From an uncultured virus (IMG/VR IMGVR_UViG_3300037400_003073) (taxonomy: Duplodnaviria > Heunggongvirae > Uroviricota > Caudoviricetes), in IMG/VR virus record IMGVR_UViG_3300037400_003073: a DNA stretch of 64,000 nt. One strand, 5' to 3'. The position numbers and the translations under genes are program-made. Shown piece after piece: positions 1 through 64,000 of this stretch; positions within the stretch are counted from its first letter, which is position 1; each line of letters opens with the position of its first letter. The notes under the pieces were generated by a model. The model was not told where the DNA came from, made no database searches, and was given only the letters and a program-made list of their open reading frames with translations.

Positions 1-345
1 AATAGAACAAAAACGGCAATTTCTGAAAAATATTTTTCAAAACTATTGACCGTGAACAAATAAATTTCTATATATAGAAATGTGAGAGCGATAAAGCCCC
101 ACAAAAAACAAGAGGTAACAAAATGAATACAAATGAACAAAAATTCGACTGCCTTTCAGTCACTCACGTCGAAGTTTCAGTTTTCAAGCAAGGGGCTTAT
201 CTTGGAAAGCTTCGCGGATTTGCTACGATTGTCTTGAACGGCCAATTGCAGATTCGCGGCTTGATGATCATGGATTCTGAAAATGGCCTTTACGTCGGTT
301 ATCCGACCGATCCGTATTGCCGCGAAGACTTCCAGCACATGGTTC
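1..345 (+). repeat. Duplicate of right-end early region: 1-127 = 59901-60027 and 110-345 = 60780-61015 (770-bp deletion allele)
   Basis: Base-by-base identity; the join lies inside the shared 18-mer aagaggtaacaaaatgaa; identity ends after ggttc (345/61015). Confidence 0.95.
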
Positions 346-2808: not shown

Positions 2809-3136
2809 TCAAGTGCTGATAGAGCTTGTCCAGTTCCTGCAGCTTCATGTGTTCCTGGAGAATCTTGAACGCTAGGGCGCTCTGTTCTTCCTGGAGTTTC
2901 TTCACGTTATCGTGCGCCGTAGTGCGTTCCTGTTCGAGGCGCTTGATAACTCCGTCGAGCTCCACGTTGCAGGCACGGACCGCGTTGCCGTCCTTTTTCG
3001 ACACGGCCACGCCCAGTTTAGAGACAAGGGCGACCGCCTGCTCGGTGAGCGTCGGTTCCTTCTTTGCCTGTTCGGTACCTTCATTCTTCGGGGCGTCTTT
3101 TACAGGTACTGCTGCGGGTTTCTTCTTTGTGCTCAT
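2753..3136 (-). CDS. Coiled-coil hypothetical protein
   Basis: AAGGA RBS, heptad-rich sequence. Confidence 0.65.
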   Translation of the reverse strand: MSTKKKPAAVPVKDAPKNEGTEQAKKEPTLTEQAVALVSKLGVAVSKKDGNAVRACNVELDGVIKRLEQERTTAHDNVKKLQEEQSALAFKILQEHMKLQELDKLYQHLNAALGSIVSLGELDATTT

Positions 3137-3262
3137 GGTGCTTTCCTTTTAGGTTGGGGAGCCCCGCTGGGGTGTGATCGTCCGGGAATGTGTCAACCCG
3201 GTGGACCCGGCGGGGCGGTTGAACTGTCGATATAAAAGGGCGCAAGACGTGCGAAATTCCAG

Positions 3263-3534
3263 CGTCTAGCCTCACGGGCTTCGGACCCGTTCGTGTTTTC
3301 GTAGCACTGGGAGAGTCGAACTCCCAACAGGTAGCCCCGGGAAAATCGTCAAAACCCGACTTGCCTGCATCCGCATGTGCCATAGGGACAAGACCCCGCG
3401 GGAGCTGATTAGGAATAAAGGAACGAAACACCCTTCACAGCTTTATGGAGTTCACTCTTGCGGAGCTCTCCGACCTACCCGAGGTCTTGTCTGTCGCGTC
3501 CATTCAGTCGGACGCTATGGGAGCAGGCTAGACG
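3263..3534 (-). ncRNA. Candidate structured RNA containing a tRNA-like (acceptor + T-arm) domain
   Basis: Perfect 10-bp closing IR (3263-3272/3525-3534); internal stems; GGGAG-TTCGACT-CTCCC T-arm with TGGCAC/GTGCTA acceptor-like stem at ~3303-3383. Confidence 0.55.
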
Positions 3535-3622
3535 GGCCATGTCCCAAACTTTGCGTGAACCTCACGCGGGCCTTACTTTTCGGCGGTTTCTTGCCGCTGG
3601 TATTCTTGCCACCGCAAGCCAT
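3515..3622 (-). CDS. MACGG micropeptide (MACGGKNTSGKKPPK...), paralog of 63812-63862; reads 35 aa here because of one missing A
   Basis: AGGAGG RBS; codon-level similarity to the right-end copy. Confidence 0.7.
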   Translation of the reverse strand: MACGGKNTSGKKPPKSKARVRFTQSLGHGPSSLLP

Positions 3623-3662
3623 AGCGTGCCTCCTGGTTAATTGTTGAACTTTCGTCGGTTCT

Positions 3663-3682
3663 AATATAACTAAACCACCGGT
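3663..3682 (-). promoter_or_regulatory. ACCGG-N9-TATATT promoter motif
   Basis: accggtggtttagttatatt; motif recurs about 10 times at gene boundaries. Confidence 0.7.
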
Positions 3683-3684
3683 GG

Positions 3685-4311
3685 TTACGTCGGGGAGCTT
3701 TCGGGGTCCCTGGCTTCCACGCGGGATTTGCCGCTTCCGTCCATCGTGACGCGGAACTCACGGTCGGGTACGATCGAAGTGCCCGCCACGTCCGCGACCA
3801 TTATAACCTGGATGCCCAGGCGATGCGAAATAAGCGTCAAGACCTCGCCCAGTCTTTGCCGTGCAGTCCCGCGTATTCTCGGGAACGGCTCGTCGAGCAG
3901 CAGCACCTTGTCGAACTTCGACATCGTGAGACAACACACACGGAGCGCAAGGGAAATCACATCGACCACGCCGCCGCCGCTGCTGTTTAGCGGGTTCATA
4001 CGGGCGCCGTCCTTGTCGAGCCACATGTCAAGCTCGGTACGTCCGCGACGCGCTACAAATTCAGTTTTAAAAGTGTAGGCGCCGGGGAACACGGCGTCGA
4101 GGGCGGTCTGTACGACATCCTCGATACGGACCCTCAGCTGGTCCTGTGTATCGCGTGCCGCCTTTTGGACGACAAGGACCAGTTCTTCCACCGAGGTCTT
4201 GCGGTCGTTGAGCCGGGACACGTCGCGCTCGGCGCTTTCGAGGGCTACCCGTGCGGCTTCACGGCGGCCCATCCAGGAGGCTGCCTTGACTGTCAATTCC
4301 TGGGCGTCCAT
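3685..4311 (-). CDS. SbcC/Rad50-like ABC ATPase, C-terminal half
   Basis: Coiled coil, SSGGG signature, LLLDEP Walker B; no Walker A. Confidence 0.85.
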   Translation of the reverse strand: MDAQELTVKAASWMGRREAARVALESAERDVSRLNDRKTSVEELVLVVQKAARDTQDQLRVRIEDVVQTALDAVFPGAYTFKTEFVARRGRTELDMWLDKDGARMNPLNSSGGGVVDVISLALRVCCLTMSKFDKVLLLDEPFPRIRGTARQRLGEVLTLISHRLGIQVIMVADVAGTSIVPDREFRVTMDGSGKSRVEARDPESSPT

Positions 4312-4313
4312 GA

Positions 4314-4565
4314 CTATCCCCCGATGCTGTTTTCGGCCTGGGCGATAAGTTCCCGCGCCTCGTCAAGCGTCGCGTTGTAACTGCTCGAAAGTTTTTCGAC
4401 GTCGCCTTCGATCTTCTTTACGATTTCGCGTATCTTTTCGGGGTCGTCGGTGCCAAATTCCGCGAGCCATTTCTTTTGAATGCTCTCGACAACACCCTGG
4501 GCTTTCGCCTTCTCGCCCTTGAGGGCATCCACGCGCTTGATCAGCTGTTCCACTTCGGTAGCCAT
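4314..4565 (-). CDS. Small coiled-coil protein (possibly part of split SbcC)
   Basis: Heptad pattern; directly upstream of the SbcC C-half. Confidence 0.6.
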   Translation of the reverse strand: MATEVEQLIKRVDALKGEKAKAQGVVESIQKKWLAEFGTDDPEKIREIVKKIEGDVEKLSSSYNATLDEARELIAQAENSIGG

Positions 4566-4620
4566 TGGGCCTCCTTGAATTTAAAAGTTTTTGCCGTCCA
4601 TAAGGTACAAGAACGACCGG

Positions 4621-5007
4621 TCATTCGATAGGGACGCGTTCGCCCCAGGTAATCACAAAATAAATAGTATAGGGGTCTCCGCCCCATTCCGGTTTTCCGA
4701 AATCGTAGCGCACCCGGGGTGTCTTGAAACGCACACGGGGAGAATCGGGGCGGTACCCGTTGCGGAACTCCACGAAATCGTAGCCCCGCATATCCTGGTA
4801 CATGTTATGCGATACGCCGCCGATAATGTTTCCGCCGTATAGCAGTTTGTAAGAACCGGGGAGCTGGTCGTCACGCTGGACTATAAGCCGGGCCTGCCAG
4901 TATGGCTTGTCCTCGCGGTATTCCTCCAGCTTTACGCCGTCCCGGATCATGGAGAACCACGGCTCCCGAACAACGAGGTGCAGAACGGTTCCGGGCTTCC
5001 TGGGCAT
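4621..5007 (-). CDS. ASCH-domain protein
   Basis: LHLVVREPWFSMIRDGVKLEEYR matches the ASCH GxKxxExR motif. Confidence 0.75.
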   Translation of the reverse strand: MPRKPGTVLHLVVREPWFSMIRDGVKLEEYREDKPYWQARLIVQRDDQLPGSYKLLYGGNIIGGVSHNMYQDMRGYDFVEFRNGYRPDSPRVRFKTPRVRYDFGKPEWGGDPYTIYFVITWGERVPIE

Positions 5008-5636
5008 TATACGGCCCCGGTGCAGTTTCTAAGGATAGTAAACACGCCGCGCACGGCTTCCACGTCGCCGTCGCAATATTTCCCGATGGGTGCCATGTCA
5101 TGACGCTTAAAGCATTCCCAAACATCTTCCCCGTCCATGTTTTCCTTCGGGTCATTGATCCCCAGCAGCAGGCACGCGGCACGCAGGCTCATGTTCGAGG
5201 AACCGAACTTCATGAGCTCCATCGTGTCGAGGTGCTGGATTTCCCAGGGTTTCTTGCCCAGCGTGTTCAATGACGCCGGGACGTGCAACCCGTGGGCCAT
5301 GTATCGTTTCGCTAAAAATGGAATATCGAAGCCCTTGATATTATGGCCCACAAGGGTTATGTTGTTGTCGAGGAATCCCCCGATACTTTCGAGAATATCG
5401 CGTTCTTCCTCGACATTCCCGGCAAGCTTGTGGCGTACCTGGGAGTCCGTGTCTTCCGCGTCAGCGTACGAGACGCAGCACACTTGCCCGAACTCCGGGT
5501 ACAGTGCAGCCATTGCTTCCAGTTTTTCGGAGTCCAGGACTCCGGGGTTCTTTTTCATGATCCACTCGGGGTACCATGTATCCATAATGCCCTCGTGGGG
5601 CACCGTCTCGATGTCCAGGGCGATAATTCTTGCCAT
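5007..5636 (-). CDS. Stand-alone DEDD 3'-5' exonuclease (PolB-exo-like)
   Basis: ALDIET, GHNIKGFDIPFL, YCDGDV motifs. Confidence 0.85.
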   Translation of the reverse strand: MARIIALDIETVPHEGIMDTWYPEWIMKKNPGVLDSEKLEAMAALYPEFGQVCCVSYADAEDTDSQVRHKLAGNVEEERDILESIGGFLDNNITLVGHNIKGFDIPFLAKRYMAHGLHVPASLNTLGKKPWEIQHLDTMELMKFGSSNMSLRAACLLLGINDPKENMDGEDVWECFKRHDMAPIGKYCDGDVEAVRGVFTILRNCTGAV

Positions 5637-8433: not shown

Positions 8434-9799
8434 TTTCGCAAGCGTGCATAGGTCGCCCGCAACAGGGGCACACCTTGCCTTCCAGGGACACGAGCGCGGA
8501 GCCCAGGGCACTCGATGCGTTCTCTAGGGCCTCCTGGGCCTTTTCATAACCAGATAGGCCCGAAGTCAAAGCCTCCAGCGTACCGCGGCACCCGGATAGC
8601 GCGGACGCTACACGGGAGAGACGAACGAGCTTGCCGTCGATGAGCTCGAAGTCCAGGTGCGCAAATTTCGCGAGGTCCATATATTCCCGGAGCCGGTTCT
8701 CTTCGATTATCCGATTCCCGCGGTCGATTTCGTCGCGGGTGTGGGAGAGTTTCGCAAGGATCGCGTCGAGCCTGTCAACGTCGATGGCGGCAACCTTACG
8801 AGCGGCAACGTAATCGGTCCGGTCCGTGGCGTATCGCTTGAGCATGTTTTCCAGGCGGTCCCGTTCGGAACCTGTGCGGGAAACTTCCTCGAGAAGCGAA
8901 CCGGCGCGCCGCAACTTGTCAAGACCCGCGGCGTTCCGTTTTTCCGTGTGGTATTCCCGGAACGACTGGCTGAGCTTGGTGCTTGTCGTAATGGCGCGGT
9001 CCAGTCGTCTTGATAGGTCATCCAGGCTTTCGAGGGTGTCGTCGATGCGGTCCAGGGCCGCCGCGAGCGATCCGTTGCGGCGGTTCTCGGTTTCCCATTG
9101 CTCCAGTTCATCGCGTAGCCGCTGTTCCTTGGCTTCCAGCACACGGAGGTCGCCTTCCATCTTTGCCGCGTCGGTTGCTAGTTCCTGGAGACGCGGGACC
9201 CAGTCTAGCGCGGAAAGTTTCTCGGCGCACTTGTCCTGGGCGCCTATGGCGTACTTGAGTTCGGAAACGGTATCGCGGTGCATCCCATTCACTGTGGCAA
9301 GTGCCTCGTCGATAACTTGCAGGTCGACCAGGCTGTTCACGTATCGGGCGGCTTCTCCGGGCGTCGCGGAAATAAGGAATGGCGGGTCCATCTGTTGCTG
9401 GATGTTTACCGCCCCGATGTTTAGGGTTTCCGCGATTTCCTTCGGGACGTCGGTTCTCAACGCTTCGAAGTCACGGGAACATCCTACGGGGCTCCCGTCG
9501 TCTTCCGTGTCCAGGTGATAGCCGTTGTATGCCTGGGAGCGTTCGCGTGTAACGACGCCGCCTTCGGAATCCAGGCGGACCAGGCAACGGCCCTTGACGT
9601 TACCCTTGTCGTCCTTGATCCAGTTGGAGAGGTGGGCGGTGCCCTGTGGGCCGTTGGTGATACACCACAGGATAGCGCGCATGACCGCGGACTTGCCACA
9701 GTCGGAATCGCCTACCAGCGCGTTGATGCGCGGATGGAGCTGGAGCCGTGTCTTTTCATGGCTTTGAAAATTTGCGATATCTACTTTAAAAATACTCAT
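8429..9799 (-). CDS. SbcC/Rad50-like ATPase, N-terminal half ending in zinc hook
   Basis: NFQSH, GDSDCGKS Walker A, Q-loop, long coiled coil, terminal CPCCG. Confidence 0.88.
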   Translation of the reverse strand: MSIFKVDIANFQSHEKTRLQLHPRINALVGDSDCGKSAVMRAILWCITNGPQGTAHLSNWIKDDKGNVKGRCLVRLDSEGGVVTRERSQAYNGYHLDTEDDGSPVGCSRDFEALRTDVPKEIAETLNIGAVNIQQQMDPPFLISATPGEAARYVNSLVDLQVIDEALATVNGMHRDTVSELKYAIGAQDKCAEKLSALDWVPRLQELATDAAKMEGDLRVLEAKEQRLRDELEQWETENRRNGSLAAALDRIDDTLESLDDLSRRLDRAITTSTKLSQSFREYHTEKRNAAGLDKLRRAGSLLEEVSRTGSERDRLENMLKRYATDRTDYVAARKVAAIDVDRLDAILAKLSHTRDEIDRGNRIIEENRLREYMDLAKFAHLDFELIDGKLVRLSRVASALSGCRGTLEALTSGLSGYEKAQEALENASSALGSALVSLEGKVCPCCGRPMHACEM

Positions 9800-10230
9800 G
9801 TCCGTTTACCTTCGAGTTCTAGCGCTTTACGAAAACACACGCGATGCGCCTTTAGCTTTCTTGCGTATCTTCTGTCTATGGTGTCGCCCGGTGTAAACAA
9901 GCCACCCGCCTTACTGTATAGGATAGCAGCGGCAAGGTCGTGAGCTATTGCGAGGGCTCTGTAGAATTTTGCTCGGAGGGCATTGTACTTTTTGTCCAGT
10001 CCCTTGAGAACCTCGTCTACTTCGGATTTGCCGTATGCCTGGAACGTCGGGTCGTCTTCATACGGAATAAATGCCTGGAGCACGTGATCCTTATAAAATT
10101 TTTCAAATTCTTTTAGTTGGCGAAATTCCCGTTCTGTTTCCCGCAGGCGCTTGTATTCGTCTTCGGGGATTTCGATGGTTTTTTGTCCATGTGTAAAGTG
10201 TACTGGGTATTCCTTATGGTATTGTTCCAT
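9796..10230 (-). CDS. Hypothetical protein
   Basis: AGGAGG RBS, coupled ORF. Confidence 0.6.
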   Translation of the reverse strand: MEQYHKEYPVHFTHGQKTIEIPEDEYKRLRETEREFRQLKEFEKFYKDHVLQAFIPYEDDPTFQAYGKSEVDEVLKGLDKKYNALRAKFYRALAIAHDLAAAILYSKAGGLFTPGDTIDRRYARKLKAHRVCFRKALELEGKRT

Positions 10231-10681
10231 GCGGTGCCTCCTTTTCCATTTTCTTGCGGCGTCGGTATTCCCTCATGTAGGCGTTGTGTTTTTCCTTGTA
10301 CTCGGGGTCGTTCTTGTGGCGGGCGCGGAACTTCCGCGCGTTCTCCCGGGCTTTCTCCGGGTGCTCCTGTCGCCACTTGCGGCTGCGTTCCTTCTTGCTT
10401 TCGGGATGCGCTGCCTCCCATCGGTCAATCTTGGCACGTACCTTTTCGGGATGCCTTTGTCTGTAACGTTTCTCGCGCTCCCTGGCACTCTTTCGGCCTT
10501 TGGGGCTGTGGCGGTATTCCTGTTTGGATTTCTTGCGCTGGGGCGTATTTTCTCGAGCGTTGCGGCGCGTCTTCGAGGCGGTTGCTACGTGTTCCGCGGC
10601 GGTTGCGATCTGCTCAAGCGTCGTCGACGCCACGCGGTTTCTCGCTTCGGTGTAAATGTCGGTTGTCATGCTATTTGCCAT
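10214..10681 (-). CDS. Highly basic helical-repeat protein
   Basis: Repeated KWRQEHPEK-like units. Confidence 0.55.
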   Translation of the reverse strand: MANSMTTDIYTEARNRVASTTLEQIATAAEHVATASKTRRNARENTPQRKKSKQEYRHSPKGRKSAREREKRYRQRHPEKVRAKIDRWEAAHPESKKERSRKWRQEHPEKARENARKFRARHKNDPEYKEKHNAYMREYRRRKKMEKEAPHGTIP

Positions 10682-16794: not shown

Positions 16795-16867
16795 TTGCAA
16801 CAGCGGGGCTCGAACCCGCAGCCTCGTCCTTCGGAGGGACGCGCTCTATCCATTGAGCTATGCCACA
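16795..16867 (-). tRNA. tRNA-Arg(CCG), CCA not encoded
   Basis: Cloverleaf: TGTGGCA/TGTTGCA acceptor, GCTC/GAGC D-stem, CGTCC-CTCCGAA-GGACG, GCGGG-TTCGAGC-CCCGC. Confidence 0.9.
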
Positions 16868-26648: not shown

Positions 26649-27031
26649 TACAGATGCCTCCGTTTCCATTTCTCCAGGGTTTCCCGGTCTTCGGATTCCC
26701 GCGTGGGACACACGGAGTCGAAAATCTTGAACCACCCGCGGGTTCCAAGGGTATCCGTGTCTACCATGCTGTCGTTGACCGGCGGGAACGCGTCGCCCCG
26801 GTACGTCGGGTCGAACCACTTCGGGTTCGGCTTCCAGTTCCGATGCTTCATTTCCCGGAGTATGCGGGAGTGATACCAAACAACCACGCCCCAGGGAAGC
26901 CCGTATATCCACGGGTGCTTGCCGTCATAAGGACGCCACGGACCGGATCGGACGCGGCACATGTCGCGATGCAGCGCGCAAAGGAGCCTGCCGGGCAAGT
27001 CTTCCAGGATTTCTGGTCGCCAAAATTTCAT
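26648..27031 (-). CDS. TIGR02328-like (pyrimidine-dimer glycosylase-related) protein
   Basis: MKFWRPEILEDLPGRLLCALHRD...W...H resembles the family's MRLWH..L..LP.QQLLGQHRE pattern. Confidence 0.55.
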   Translation of the reverse strand: MKFWRPEILEDLPGRLLCALHRDMCRVRSGPWRPYDGKHPWIYGLPWGVVVWYHSRILREMKHRNWKPNPKWFDPTYRGDAFPPVNDSMVDTDTLGTRGWFKIFDSVCPTRESEDRETLEKWKRRHL

Positions 27032-28181: not shown

Positions 28182-29564
28182 AAAAAGCGTGGGCAGGAAG
28201 ATGCCGTCCCTTTAGGGCGGCGTAGGAATGCCCACGAGAACACTTTGGGAACACTTTATTCCAATATTGCACCTAAAATGCTTGATTTGCAATTCGAAAT
28301 GTTCTAAACTTATAATTGAACACGGGTGAAATTCAGATGGCAGAACTGACCTACAATGCAGAGCTACGGTTCCGTACCAAGGAAGACCACGAATACTGGT
28401 CTAGTCTTCTTGCATTGTCCAGGAAAGCCTACAACAAGTGTGCGAACATCCTTGATTCCAACAATGTCCATATAGACTTGCGGTCAGTCCACAAGGCAGT
28501 GTATGATATTCTCCGTGAGGAATATCCAACCATTCCAAGCCAAGCCGTAATCAAGATATACAAGGAGTGCATATCGGCATTCCGTTCCATCAAGAGCAAC
28601 GGCCATAAGAAGCACAAAATACCAGAAAAGCATGGTCTATCAATGAGGCTGGACAAGCGGCTGTATTCTAAGTTCAATCGCAAGAGCATTGCATTGTGCT
28701 CCGGCAAGGCTTGCAAAAGAGCCGTAGCGGATATTGTCGGTTATGACAGGCTGGAGTCGCTGTTTGTGCAATATACCACAGCCGACCCGTTGATTTTCAT
28801 GCGAAATGGGCGTTTCTTCCTTTCGATAACATTCAATGTTCCCGATGTACCTCTATATGATGACAACTGCATCGGATTGGATATGGGCGAACGCCGTTTC
28901 GCAATTTCCTCCGATGGAATCATGTTCCACGACAAGGAATACAACAAGCGTAGACGCAAACTACGCTACTTGAAGCGTTGCTTGCAAAAGAAAGGAACTA
29001 AGTCTGCACGTAGGCATTCTCGTAAGCTATCCATCAAGGAACAAAACCAGTCTACCGATATGTGCCGAAAGATTGCCAATGCGGTAATCCAAAGCACGTC
29101 AGCTTCCATTATCGTAATGGAAGATTTAAGCGGAATTAAGCAGAAGACTTCAAAGTCTAAAGAGGGATTCAAACGGAAATCCCATAATCGTAGGATGTGC
29201 CAAATTCCATTCTACAAGTTCAAGCAAATCTTGTCATACAAGACACCGCTGTACGGTAAGACAGTGGAAACAGTTTCTCCGTTCATGACAAGCCAAACTG
29301 ATTGCACCACGGGCAAGAAGGAAGGTACTCGCAAGAATCGTAGATTCTATTGCAAGAACGGTACTGTCCTGGATGCCGACTGGAATGCTGCAATCAACAT
29401 AGCTCGGAAGAGCAAACATCCTTCCTCGTTCAAGATGCCCCTTGATGGCGCATTGAGAACTTGGAAGGCAGGGTGTATGTCAACCACCCAATCGTACATC
29501 AGTCTCCCTGCGGTAACAACGGGAGCCGTACAAGCTCACGCCCTTCAGGGCGTGGGTAGTTGAC
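28182..29564 (+). mobile_element. Non-autonomous IS200/IS605-family element (tnpB only), inserted 3' of TCAC
   Basis: LE: GAAG at +16..19 then hairpin GCCGTCCC-TTTA-GGGCGGC; RE: CAAG, hairpin CTCACGCCC-TTCA-GGGCGTGGG, ends TGAC; composition differs from flanks. Confidence 0.9.
28337..29563 (+). CDS. tnpB: RNA-guided endonuclease TnpB
   Basis: RuvC motifs IGLDMG, VMEDL, DADWNAAINI; TSQTDC; degenerate zinc finger. Confidence 0.92.
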   Translation: MAELTYNAELRFRTKEDHEYWSSLLALSRKAYNKCANILDSNNVHIDLRSVHKAVYDILREEYPTIPSQAVIKIYKECISAFRSIKSNGHKKHKIPEKHGLSMRLDKRLYSKFNRKSIALCSGKACKRAVADIVGYDRLESLFVQYTTADPLIFMRNGRFFLSITFNVPDVPLYDDNCIGLDMGERRFAISSDGIMFHDKEYNKRRRKLRYLKRCLQKKGTKSARRHSRKLSIKEQNQSTDMCRKIANAVIQSTSASIIVMEDLSGIKQKTSKSKEGFKRKSHNRRMCQIPFYKFKQILSYKTPLYGKTVETVSPFMTSQTDCTTGKKEGTRKNRRFYCKNGTVLDADWNAAINIARKSKHPSSFKMPLDGALRTWKAGCMSTTQSYISLPAVTTGAVQAHALQGVGS

Positions 29565-63634: not shown

Positions 63635-63811
63635 AGATAAGGAATATAAAAATGAGCAAATTTAGTTGGTTCACAAGTACAGAACGATACGATGGCGGTT
63701 GGTATAAATGCAATGCCCGCGTAGAACTTATTGGTAATACGTTATCATTTACCGACTCTTGATCCTAAACGTATTAACCAAATTAACCGAATAAAAAAAA
63801 GGAGGTCGCAC

Positions 63812-63862
63812 ATGGCTTGCGGTGGCAAGAAATCCGGCGGCAAGAAACCGCCGAAAAAGTAG
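63812..63862 (+). CDS. 16-aa basic micropeptide MACGGKKSGGKKPPKK
   Basis: AAGGAGG RBS, terminator after, paralog at 3622. Confidence 0.7.
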   Translation: MACGGKKSGGKKPPKK

Positions 63863-63880
63863 CATTCGTTTGGATGCAAG

Positions 63881-63917
63881 AAGGGCGCATGGCTGATGCC
63901 GTGCGCCCTGTTTTTTT
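63881..63917 (+). terminator. Intrinsic terminator
   Basis: AGGGCGCATGGC/GCCGTGCGCCCT stem followed by T7. Confidence 0.8.
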
Positions 63918-64000
63918 AGGATTGGATTGATTGAGTTTGATATAATGTTTTATGCGAGGTTAACCGCGTCCGTCAAGTCTTCCTTGAGTACGTGAGAGTA

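Follow-up and report, generated by a model that had tools for sequence, protein, structure and literature searches.

A predicted micropeptide gene family of tailed phages with an invariant cysteine and a variable polycationic tail

The stretch of viral DNA analyzed here (64,000 nucleotides, hereafter the window) contains two minute open reading frames (ORFs), termed copy A and copy B, whose products begin with the same MACGGK string. Are these copies of a genuine gene and, if so, what might so small a peptide do for the phage? The original prediction had described both as MACGGK-type ORFs with an AGGAGG ribosome-binding site (RBS) and an upstream AATTAACC motif, all of which is correct (Table 1). 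From the ATG onward, 43 of 46 nucleotides are identical between the two copies, whereas their flanks are unrelated apart from the RBS. The window contains each of the two 20-mers of this core exactly two times, whereas shuffles predict 0.01 and 0.02 occurrences. The count of the AATTAACC motif in the 64-kb window fits chance (2 versus 2.1), but its placement does not, as both matches sit just upstream of the peptide ATGs. Short basic ORFs as a class are common by chance (16 in the window versus 3 to 14 in 20 shuffles); hence, the evidence for a gene has to come from conservation and not from composition.

The window derives from a tailed phage whose terminase is at most 35% identical to those of named phages. 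Matches to PHROGs delineate a replication block (primase, polymerase, and helicases) on the minus strand at ~0.5 to 27 kb and a second block, at ~31 to 53 kb of the plus strand, with the genes for packaging, head, tail, and baseplate; between them lies a 415-aa ORF (28316-29563, plus strand) that matches transposase PHROGs (phrog_506, E = 1e-42) and coincides with a dip in G+C content. Within the replication block, copy A lies between an ATPase gene (phrog_15167), which it follows, and a tRNA-like element. Copy B is found among accessory genes, past SpoVG-like, N6-methylase, and DUF4314 genes, and, by homology with G002 (loci L154/L001), faces the 3' end of an integrase gene. Its coding sequence (CDS) is identical in G002, where the terminator-like hairpin is also kept. 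Copy B is intact and is the last cistron of its transcript, with a terminator of its own. In G002 (8628-10601), the matches to window positions 1-143 and 63757-64000 are ~1.6 kb apart, with the integrase gene between them. The window probably covers nearly all of a genome of ~65 to 66 kb, on which the integrase would be bracketed by the two copies, inverted relative to each other and separated by roughly 5 kb. Since exactly one copy is present in each of 20 other viral records searched, the occurrence of two in the window is unusual.

Table 1. Positions of the two peptide ORFs and adjoining elements in the window, and gene order around the peptide gene in other phage lineages
Feature	Position	Strand	Remarks
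Copy A, 35-aa ORF	ATG 3622-3620, stop 3517-3515 (3515..3622)	minus	MACGGKNTSGKKPPKSKARVRFTQSLGHGPSSLLP*; translation of the window
Copy A, make-up	3515..3622	minus	MACGGKNTSGKKPPK, then a 20-aa frameshifted extension
Copy A, ancestral 16-codon end	TAA at 3575-3573	minus	would-be stop without the frameshift
Copy A, A4 run	3577..3580	minus	TTTT on the plus strand; A5 in relatives
Copy A, AGGAGG Shine-Dalgarno	3629..3634	minus	6 nt ahead of the ATG
Copy A, AATTAACC motif	3635..3642	minus	upstream of the ATG
195-nt stretch between peptide end and tRNA-like element	3382..3576	minus	absent from G001 and X5; present in X1 and X2
tRNA-like (cloverleaf-like) element	3303..3381	minus	fold common to the window and its G001 counterpart; also L346 346-425
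Copy B, intact 16-aa ORF	63812-63862	plus	MACGGKKSGGKKPPKK*, TAG stop; translation of the window
Copy B, AGGAGG Shine-Dalgarno	63800..63805	plus	6 nt ahead of the ATG
Copy B, AATTAACC motif	63781..63788	plus	upstream of the ATG; ATTAACC directly precedes the motif
Intrinsic-terminator-like hairpin and T run	63882..63917	plus	12 pairs, 9 of them G-C; 19 nt past the copy B stop
Context, cr53_1 (Suoliviridae-like crAss phages)			portal-protease-peptide, upstream of the major head protein
Context, L018 and L030			portal-peptide
Context, L140			portal-337 aa-peptide, upstream of the major head protein
Context, L036			protease/major-head fusion-peptide
Context, L143			portal-gp7-like-peptide-248 aa-major head protein (MCP)
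Context, L149			major head protein (MCP)-peptide
Context, L150, L146, and L153			peptide shortly ahead of the portal or terminase gene
Context, crAss001			lysis block (gp27-gp30)-peptide-gp31-major capsid protein
Context, L141, L144, L147, L148, and L151			beside tail-fiber, lysozyme, or holin genes
Context, L139/L152 and L145			among thymidylate-synthase-like or DGR genes

Conventional sequence searches yielded little: blastn against phages found nothing for window positions 3100-4400 and just one chance 26-nt match for copy B plus its terminator, tblastn of a 20-aa member against phages also came up empty, probably owing to the low-complexity filter, and a long degenerate pattern of 44 nt found 0 matches in viral contigs. 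Degenerate-pattern scans of viral contigs, whose larger counts refer to the matches listed and are lower bounds, recovered a family. A pattern combining the RBS with MACGGK hit seven viral contigs, all seven of which encode ORFs of 9 to 16 aa. The MACGGKK pattern is present at no fewer than 117 loci; among the matches listed, 111 are ORFs of at most 30 aa rich in K, G, and S, the remaining six being one 34-aa family-like form, one +1 A frameshift variant, and four chance-looking matches, and these listed matches comprise at least 57 distinct CDSs. When the loci from the different patterns (more than 100) are pooled, the matches listed hold at least 121 distinct CDSs for at least 89 distinct peptides of 8 to 20 aa, with members in crAss-like gut phages, rumen phages, and others. 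The original prediction had hinged on further homologs with synonymous variation, and these are abundant.

Several features of these loci speak for coding status. The commonest peptide, of 19 aa, is encoded by at least nine different CDSs among the matches listed, which differ at synonymous sites only. Beyond codon 7, changes fall on the third codon position 328 times versus 129 and 195 times on the other positions, and length changes between members are in whole codons. An SD-like 4-mer is present upstream in 99 of the 133 distinct contexts listed. We base the coding status of these ORFs on the finding that, across more than 100 unrelated contigs, the nucleotide sequence diverges but frame, start, stop, and amino acids are retained: both window ORFs are members of a genuine family of micropeptide-encoding genes in tailed phages. 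The proposal of a conserved gene with a strong RBS that lies below gene-caller thresholds is thereby borne out by the pattern scans. As for the tail, it is the composition and not the sequence that is kept (234 synonymous versus 222 nonsynonymous codon differences in 146 pairs).

Which residues define the family was established by freeing individual positions in the pattern and then checking ORF length. With residue 3 free (M-A-x-G-G-K-K-x-G), all 96 of the matches listed that have Cys are short ORFs, whereas 20 of the 22 without it are long or open frames with the appearance of chance, the other two being short and not Lys-rich. When residue 2 is freed, Ala predominates, with 96 of the matches listed; family-like peptides with another residue here have Pro (5), Lys (4), Gly (1), or Ser (1), and a further six short listed matches, with Gln or Arg at this position, are not Lys-rich. 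The pattern M-A-C-x-x-K-K-x-G-K gives short ORFs in 119 of 120 matches listed, with GG at the two free positions in 55 and mostly GK, KG, GS, SS, or GT in the rest. By this comparison Cys3, already singled out in the original prediction, is invariant and Gly4-Gly5 is not, and the family core reads as Met-Ala-Cys plus a polycationic tail and not as MACGG. The earlier notion of a conserved MACGG-lysine unit thus holds for the MAC and the Lys-rich tail but not for the glycine pair, and with that pair not being invariant, ideas built on a CGG unit (zinc knuckle, lipobox +2/+3 positions, or N3S chelator) were dropped.

The family (hereafter MAC peptides) can be defined as Met-Ala-Cys followed by 5 to 17 residues, nearly all of which are Lys, Gly, Ser, Arg, Pro, or Thr. 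In the pooled matches listed, the tail is 50% K, 33% G, and 7% S, with V, L, I, M, Y, and A together under 2%; 86 of 89 listed peptides have a single Cys, and the mean net charge over 46 peptides is +6.9 (about +7, for the MxCGGKK subset). The high basic density and low-complexity K/G/S make-up are those of a polycation, with no fold indicated, and the micropeptides are expected to be disordered and unable to fold. The likeness to histone tails raised at the outset comes down to the low-complexity K/G composition of the tail only. The scans also hit six longer, Cys-rich ORFs (L277, L281, L282, L288, L289, and L293), which start with MNCGGKKKGYK… or MHCGGKKKGY…, contain more CGGK/CxC motifs, and are still open at 42 aa, where the locus ends; these may represent a different, zinc-ribbon-like small protein with a common N-terminal string.

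A number of known classes of small proteins do not fit these peptides. They are not bacterial lipoproteins processed by Lgt and Lsp, as there is no signal peptide before a lipobox ([LVI][ASTVI][GAS]C); the Cys is residue 3, and an in-frame stop occurs 0 to 17 codons upstream in most loci. True Prevotella lipoproteins (L305 and L312) with -M-A-C-G-G-K-K- at the lipobox and mature N terminus, in contrast, have a long open frame upstream. A lipoprotein N terminus combines the lipobox with a Gly/Ser/Lys tether, and Pam3CSK4 is a synthetic lipopeptide; the likeness of the micropeptides to such N termini is probably compositional, given that their Gly4-Gly5 is not conserved. A RiPP precursor is likewise rejected, since no leader precedes Cys3 and no enzyme family recurs alongside the gene in 16 lineages. 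The near absence of hydrophobic residues from the tail speaks against amphipathic peptides of the disruptin or antimicrobial type, and a regulatory leader or upstream ORF is contradicted by 6 of 19 contexts, copy B among them, in which a terminator-like hairpin follows and the next 110 nt hold no start of an ORF of at least 50 aa.

Copy A departs from the rest of the family in its length, and its close relatives indicate why. The original prediction had noted that one added A in the A run would give a 16-aa product ending in ...PPKK* at a TAA, and had called for a check of the length of this run; that form does exist. The viral contig G001 (61.8 kb, rated complete) is ~91 to 93% identical to the window across the replication block and in places within the head block, with lower identity elsewhere, and in this relative (G001/G003, 92% identical) the orthologue of copy A, a single copy at the same position, is MACGGKKTGGKKPPKK* with an A5 run. 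In a comparison of contigs from four public sequencing runs over window positions 3100-4000, the contig of X1, the run from which this DNA may come, has the sequence of the window here (A4). The X2 contig, from another study, has an extra T behind 3576 (plus strand) which, together with an S9G substitution, gives MACGGKNTGGKKPPKK*, and is likewise A5. The X5 contig skips 195 nt (3381 to 3577), which restores AAAAAG TAA with an A5 run in a G001-like arrangement. A scan of metagenomes for the A4/A5 allele retrieved the G001 contig only. As A5 gives the 16-aa form in G001/G003, X2, and X5, copy A is a derived allele with a -1 A frameshift, 35 aa in length, with the first 15 residues kept, and the 16-aa A5 form is the ancestral allele that still circulates. 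By the same comparison, the 195-nt stretch is an insertion specific to the sub-lineage of the window, placed exactly between the peptide stop and the tRNA-like element. Six more contigs in X1 and X2 match just the ~40-nt CDS, with unrelated flanks, and we read these as other phages of the same samples that carry the gene. Elsewhere in the family, the viral contig L115 has a +1 A in a Lys-codon A run that turns MACGGKKKKKKGR* into a 31-aa frameshifted form, a second case of homopolymer slippage besides copy A.

In a manual classification of 21 hand-chosen lineages, in which many neighbors are of unknown function, about 12 of the 21 contexts lie within ~3 genes of portal, protease, head-morphogenesis, major head protein, or terminase genes, and five further ones are beside tail-fiber or lysis genes, placing 17 of 21 in late regions (Table 1). 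The 240- to 390-aa genes upstream of the major head protein, for which no family was found, are labeled as scaffold by position only. There is no recurrent family of modifying enzymes among the neighbors in 16 lineages, which fits a peptide that acts unmodified. In 6 of 19 contexts, including copy B and crAss001, a terminator-like hairpin follows the peptide gene, and the next 110 nt contain no start of an ORF of at least 50 aa; in several other lineages, the next ORF begins 1 to 38 nt past the peptide stop. Two further associations may be loose linkages to the peptide gene: a DUF5675 (phrog_1501) gene is present 0.4 to 0.8 kb upstream of it in L150 (4807-5325) and L153 (1740-2222), which are otherwise different lineages, and phrog_16490 adjoins it in the L139/L152 and L145 lineages.

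Without a fold, such a peptide would have to act through multivalent charge and its one thiol, probably in large numbers. Taking this together with the late and head-associated contexts, the proposal that we tentatively prefer, though we hold it at less than even confidence, is that the MAC peptide is a cationic thiol compound present in abundance and bound to the phage DNA as heads are assembled. Its synthesis would be strong and late in infection, alongside that of the head proteins, and the peptide, as a multivalent cation with a single thiol, would neutralize and condense the DNA during or after packaging. Charge neutralization alone leaves the invariant Cys at position 3, near the N terminus, unexplained. 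One option is that, outside the cell, a disulfide might link two peptides into a tighter binder that is released by reduction; the other is that the Cys might provide a DNA-bound protective thiol. The disulfide option is weakened by the reducing conditions of the gut. In favor of the DNA-binding proposal is the classification above (17 of 21 contexts late and ~12 of 21 in head or packaging regions, by our own assignment); against it, neither window copy is part of the head module, copy A being in the replication block and copy B among accessory genes next to the integrase, and two other lineages have the gene among nucleotide-metabolism or DGR genes. For the lineage of the window, it would have to be supposed that the gene moved out of the head module, whereupon the second copy may have let copy A decay.

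Short, unstructured, and very basic proteins that neutralize and condense packaged double-stranded DNA are well known in the form of adenovirus mu (pX), protein VII, and the protamines, and in the last of these, Cys disulfides lock the condensate. These are Arg-rich and are either cleaved from precursors or much longer, and they have no sequence relation to the predicted MAC peptides. The disulfide-linked forms of synthetic Cys-(Lys)n condensers bind DNA more tightly and are set free on reduction, and cationic thiols concentrate on DNA. Such peptides and the aminothiol protectants have the same ingredients as the predicted MAC peptides (oligolysine and one thiol), but they are man-made and the analogy is one of chemistry only. 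To our knowledge, no free DNA-condensing peptide of the protamine type is known for tailed phages. The fuller and somewhat more doubtful version of the DNA-binding proposal is that tailed phages, including crAss-like ones, possess just such a free "phage protamine," namely, a 1- to 2-kDa Ala-Cys-oligolysine peptide that would be loaded into the head with the DNA in thousands of copies, for charge neutralization, with the thiol allowing redox-switchable cross-linking or genome protection. If this is true, it would be a virion component missed by gene callers, SDS gels, and tryptic proteomics. The tiny ribosomal proteins Thx, bS22, and bL37 (24 to 33 aa) are also highly basic and bind nucleic acids; they have neither sequence similarity to the predicted MAC peptides nor an invariant Cys.

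Alternatively, in line with the ideas of the original prediction, the polycation could be aimed at the host. The peptide might bind host RNA, ribosomes, the nucleoid, or polyphosphate, or its lysines or Cys3 might offer a decoy or an acceptor site to some enzyme or defense system of the host. The positions of both window copies and of L139/L152 and L145 in early, accessory, or nucleotide-metabolism regions would suit such a function, as would the moron-like character of copy B, with its own terminator and integrase neighbor, and the invariant Cys suggests a specific chemical or recognition role. However, most contexts are late structural regions, and, with member phages whose start regions do or do not have SD-like sequences and whose G+C content ranges from 28% to 63%, the target would need to be nearly universal. 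The freely varying tail (234 synonymous versus 222 nonsynonymous differences) further argues against a specific protein interface, and we regard a host-directed role as unlikely.

Rather less likely still is a contribution to lysis, whereby the polycation would reach the envelope when the holin fires and destabilize the outer membrane or wall polymers in the manner of polylysine or the phiKT disruptin. A cationic phage peptide for disruption of the outer membrane has been described in phiKT gp28 (10.1101/515445), also a small product near or below the limits of gene callers with a late function. The gene for the MAC peptide is directly before the holin-endolysin pair in L148, after a lysozyme gene in L144, near endolysin genes in L141 and L147, and directly after the lysis block gp27-gp30 in crAss001. 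Yet, this position beside holin, endolysin, or lysozyme genes is not found elsewhere (~5 of 21 contexts). Compared with gp28, the MAC peptides are shorter, with no hydrophobic residues to speak of; they are hence not amphipathic in the way of antimicrobial peptides, and their invariant Cys would be left unexplained.

A different class of explanation makes the peptide itself irrelevant. Operons can harbor very short, strongly initiated ORFs, as in the lambda bar minigenes and attenuator leaders, and, by analogy, the act of translating the Lys and Pro codons after a strong initiation could couple or attenuate downstream expression. The close spacing of the next ORF in several lineages (1 to 38 nt past the stop) and the slippery A runs in the Lys codons (A4/A5 in copy A and the +1 A in L115) are compatible with this. 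Against it, a terminator-like hairpin with no ORF in the next 110 nt closes 6 of the 19 contexts examined, several members thereby being terminal cistrons, and the downstream genes are unrelated across lineages. Moreover, in contrast to leader peptides and minigenes, MAC and the composition are conserved at the amino acid level, across synonymous changes and across phyla of phages, making a purely regulatory mini-cistron improbable.

The original prediction had further suggested that the peptide might be a partner of the adjacent RNA. For instance, it might bind that RNA, or the element might form the 3' end of its mRNA. The element next to copy A has 26 predicted pairs, one of them compensatory in a comparison of two sequences only, with a 5-bp acceptor-like stem and a T-arm (GGGAG TTCGACT CTCCC) whose stem in G001 is GGGGG/CCCCC, the compensatory change. 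In G001/G003 and the X5 contig, it starts directly past the TAA of the peptide, an arrangement that, along with the retained cloverleaf-like fold, would favor such a partnership. At the gathering threshold, Rfam called only a tRNA-Arg at 16795-16867 in the window; at E values up to 5, it gave just a chance frameshift-element match over 3100-3720, and ARAGORN made no call in the region of copy A and the element. Folding of the 426 nt of RNA past copy A revealed no unusual stability (z = -1.44). The 22-nt core of the element is found in two viral contigs only, both of the G001/G003 type, whereas copy B, G002, and all other lineages are without it; at 19 other loci, the peptide gene has no tRNA gene next to it, and the sole two tRNAs called, both in L143, are ~2.5 kb away; in the window itself the 195-nt insertion separates peptide and element. 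As a general rule, then, the partnership is not supported, and we deem it very improbable; the element is a lineage-specific neighbor and neither a part nor a general partner of the peptide family. It could be a transcript-end or processing signal or the relic of an integration site.

Least credible of all is that there is no gene and that the two copies are a repeated DNA or RNA signal, open by chance, in the form of a 46-nt inverted repeat around the integrase region: they are mutually inverted and, by comparison with G002, would flank a ~5-kb segment with the integrase, and their Gly-Gly and Pro-Pro codons can form a small hairpin within the CDS, but orthologue comparison found no compensatory change maintaining that hairpin, and the synonymous variation among more than 100 unrelated contigs that keep frame, start, stop, and amino acids contradicts such a signal.

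The family is new in being absent from the annotations and family libraries searched. With six peptides of 20 to 35 aa, copy A included, Pfam and NCBIfam returned 0 families at E values up to 10, and exact look-up of five members of 20 to 35 aa among 15 billion proteins found none. Motifs of the MACGGK and MAKTCK types were not found in the main texts of the papers searched, and keyword searches returned nothing relevant. A scan of genome contigs gave 28 matches, only four of them family-like. Three of these (L313, L316, and L324) are on AT-rich contigs (32 to 34% G+C) and encode peptides as found on crAss-like viral contigs; they sit in MAG bins labeled Clostridium and Bacilli and are probably mis-binned phage contigs. 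The other 24 are not members: two are the Prevotella lipoproteins, and the remaining 22, which include three 7-aa MACGGKK stubs, are not rich in Lys. With most matches being nonmembers and the rest including such AT-rich contigs in MAG bins, no host can be assigned through prophages. If the peptide is made, it would be among the shortest conserved viral gene products known, and its gene shows that an entire category of products escapes gene callers with the standard minimum of 30 codons, as well as SDS-PAGE and tryptic proteomics. The pairing of an invariant Cys with a polycation that is free to vary presents a structure-function puzzle, and the peptide is a testable candidate for the means by which some phages cope with charge and chemistry in tightly packed DNA or, alternatively, for a new host-directed or lysis polycation.

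Direct tests are made feasible by the cultivable Bacteroides phage crAss001 (MH675552, L326), which has an unannotated 22-aa ORF between gp30 and gp31 at 26878-26946, MAKTCKSGGKMPPKGGKKPTKK (MAKTCKSGGK…), with an SD-like sequence before it and a hairpin after it. All 19 matches to a pattern for this form are ORFs of 15 to 22 aa on contigs of about 52 to 103 kb, mostly near 100 kb, and the crAss001 ORF is by its sequence a related but distinct form of the MAC peptide. The crAss-like phages are the most abundant human gut viruses, and mass spectrometry of crAss001 virions was performed on trypsin-treated gel bands against a database of annotated proteins (PMC10172136). By that procedure, a 2-kDa Lys-rich, unannotated peptide would be missed in the virions. 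In the RefSeq record of cr53_1 (L125, NC_055889.1), the peptide ORF is likewise unannotated, between the "protease" gene gp90 and gp89. The latter, a late gene (4160-5311 of the locus), has 10 in-frame TAG codons that are read through as Gln, and its annotated start (locus position 4187) is probably nine codons too far downstream, the true ATG being at 4160, with a TAG at codon 8.
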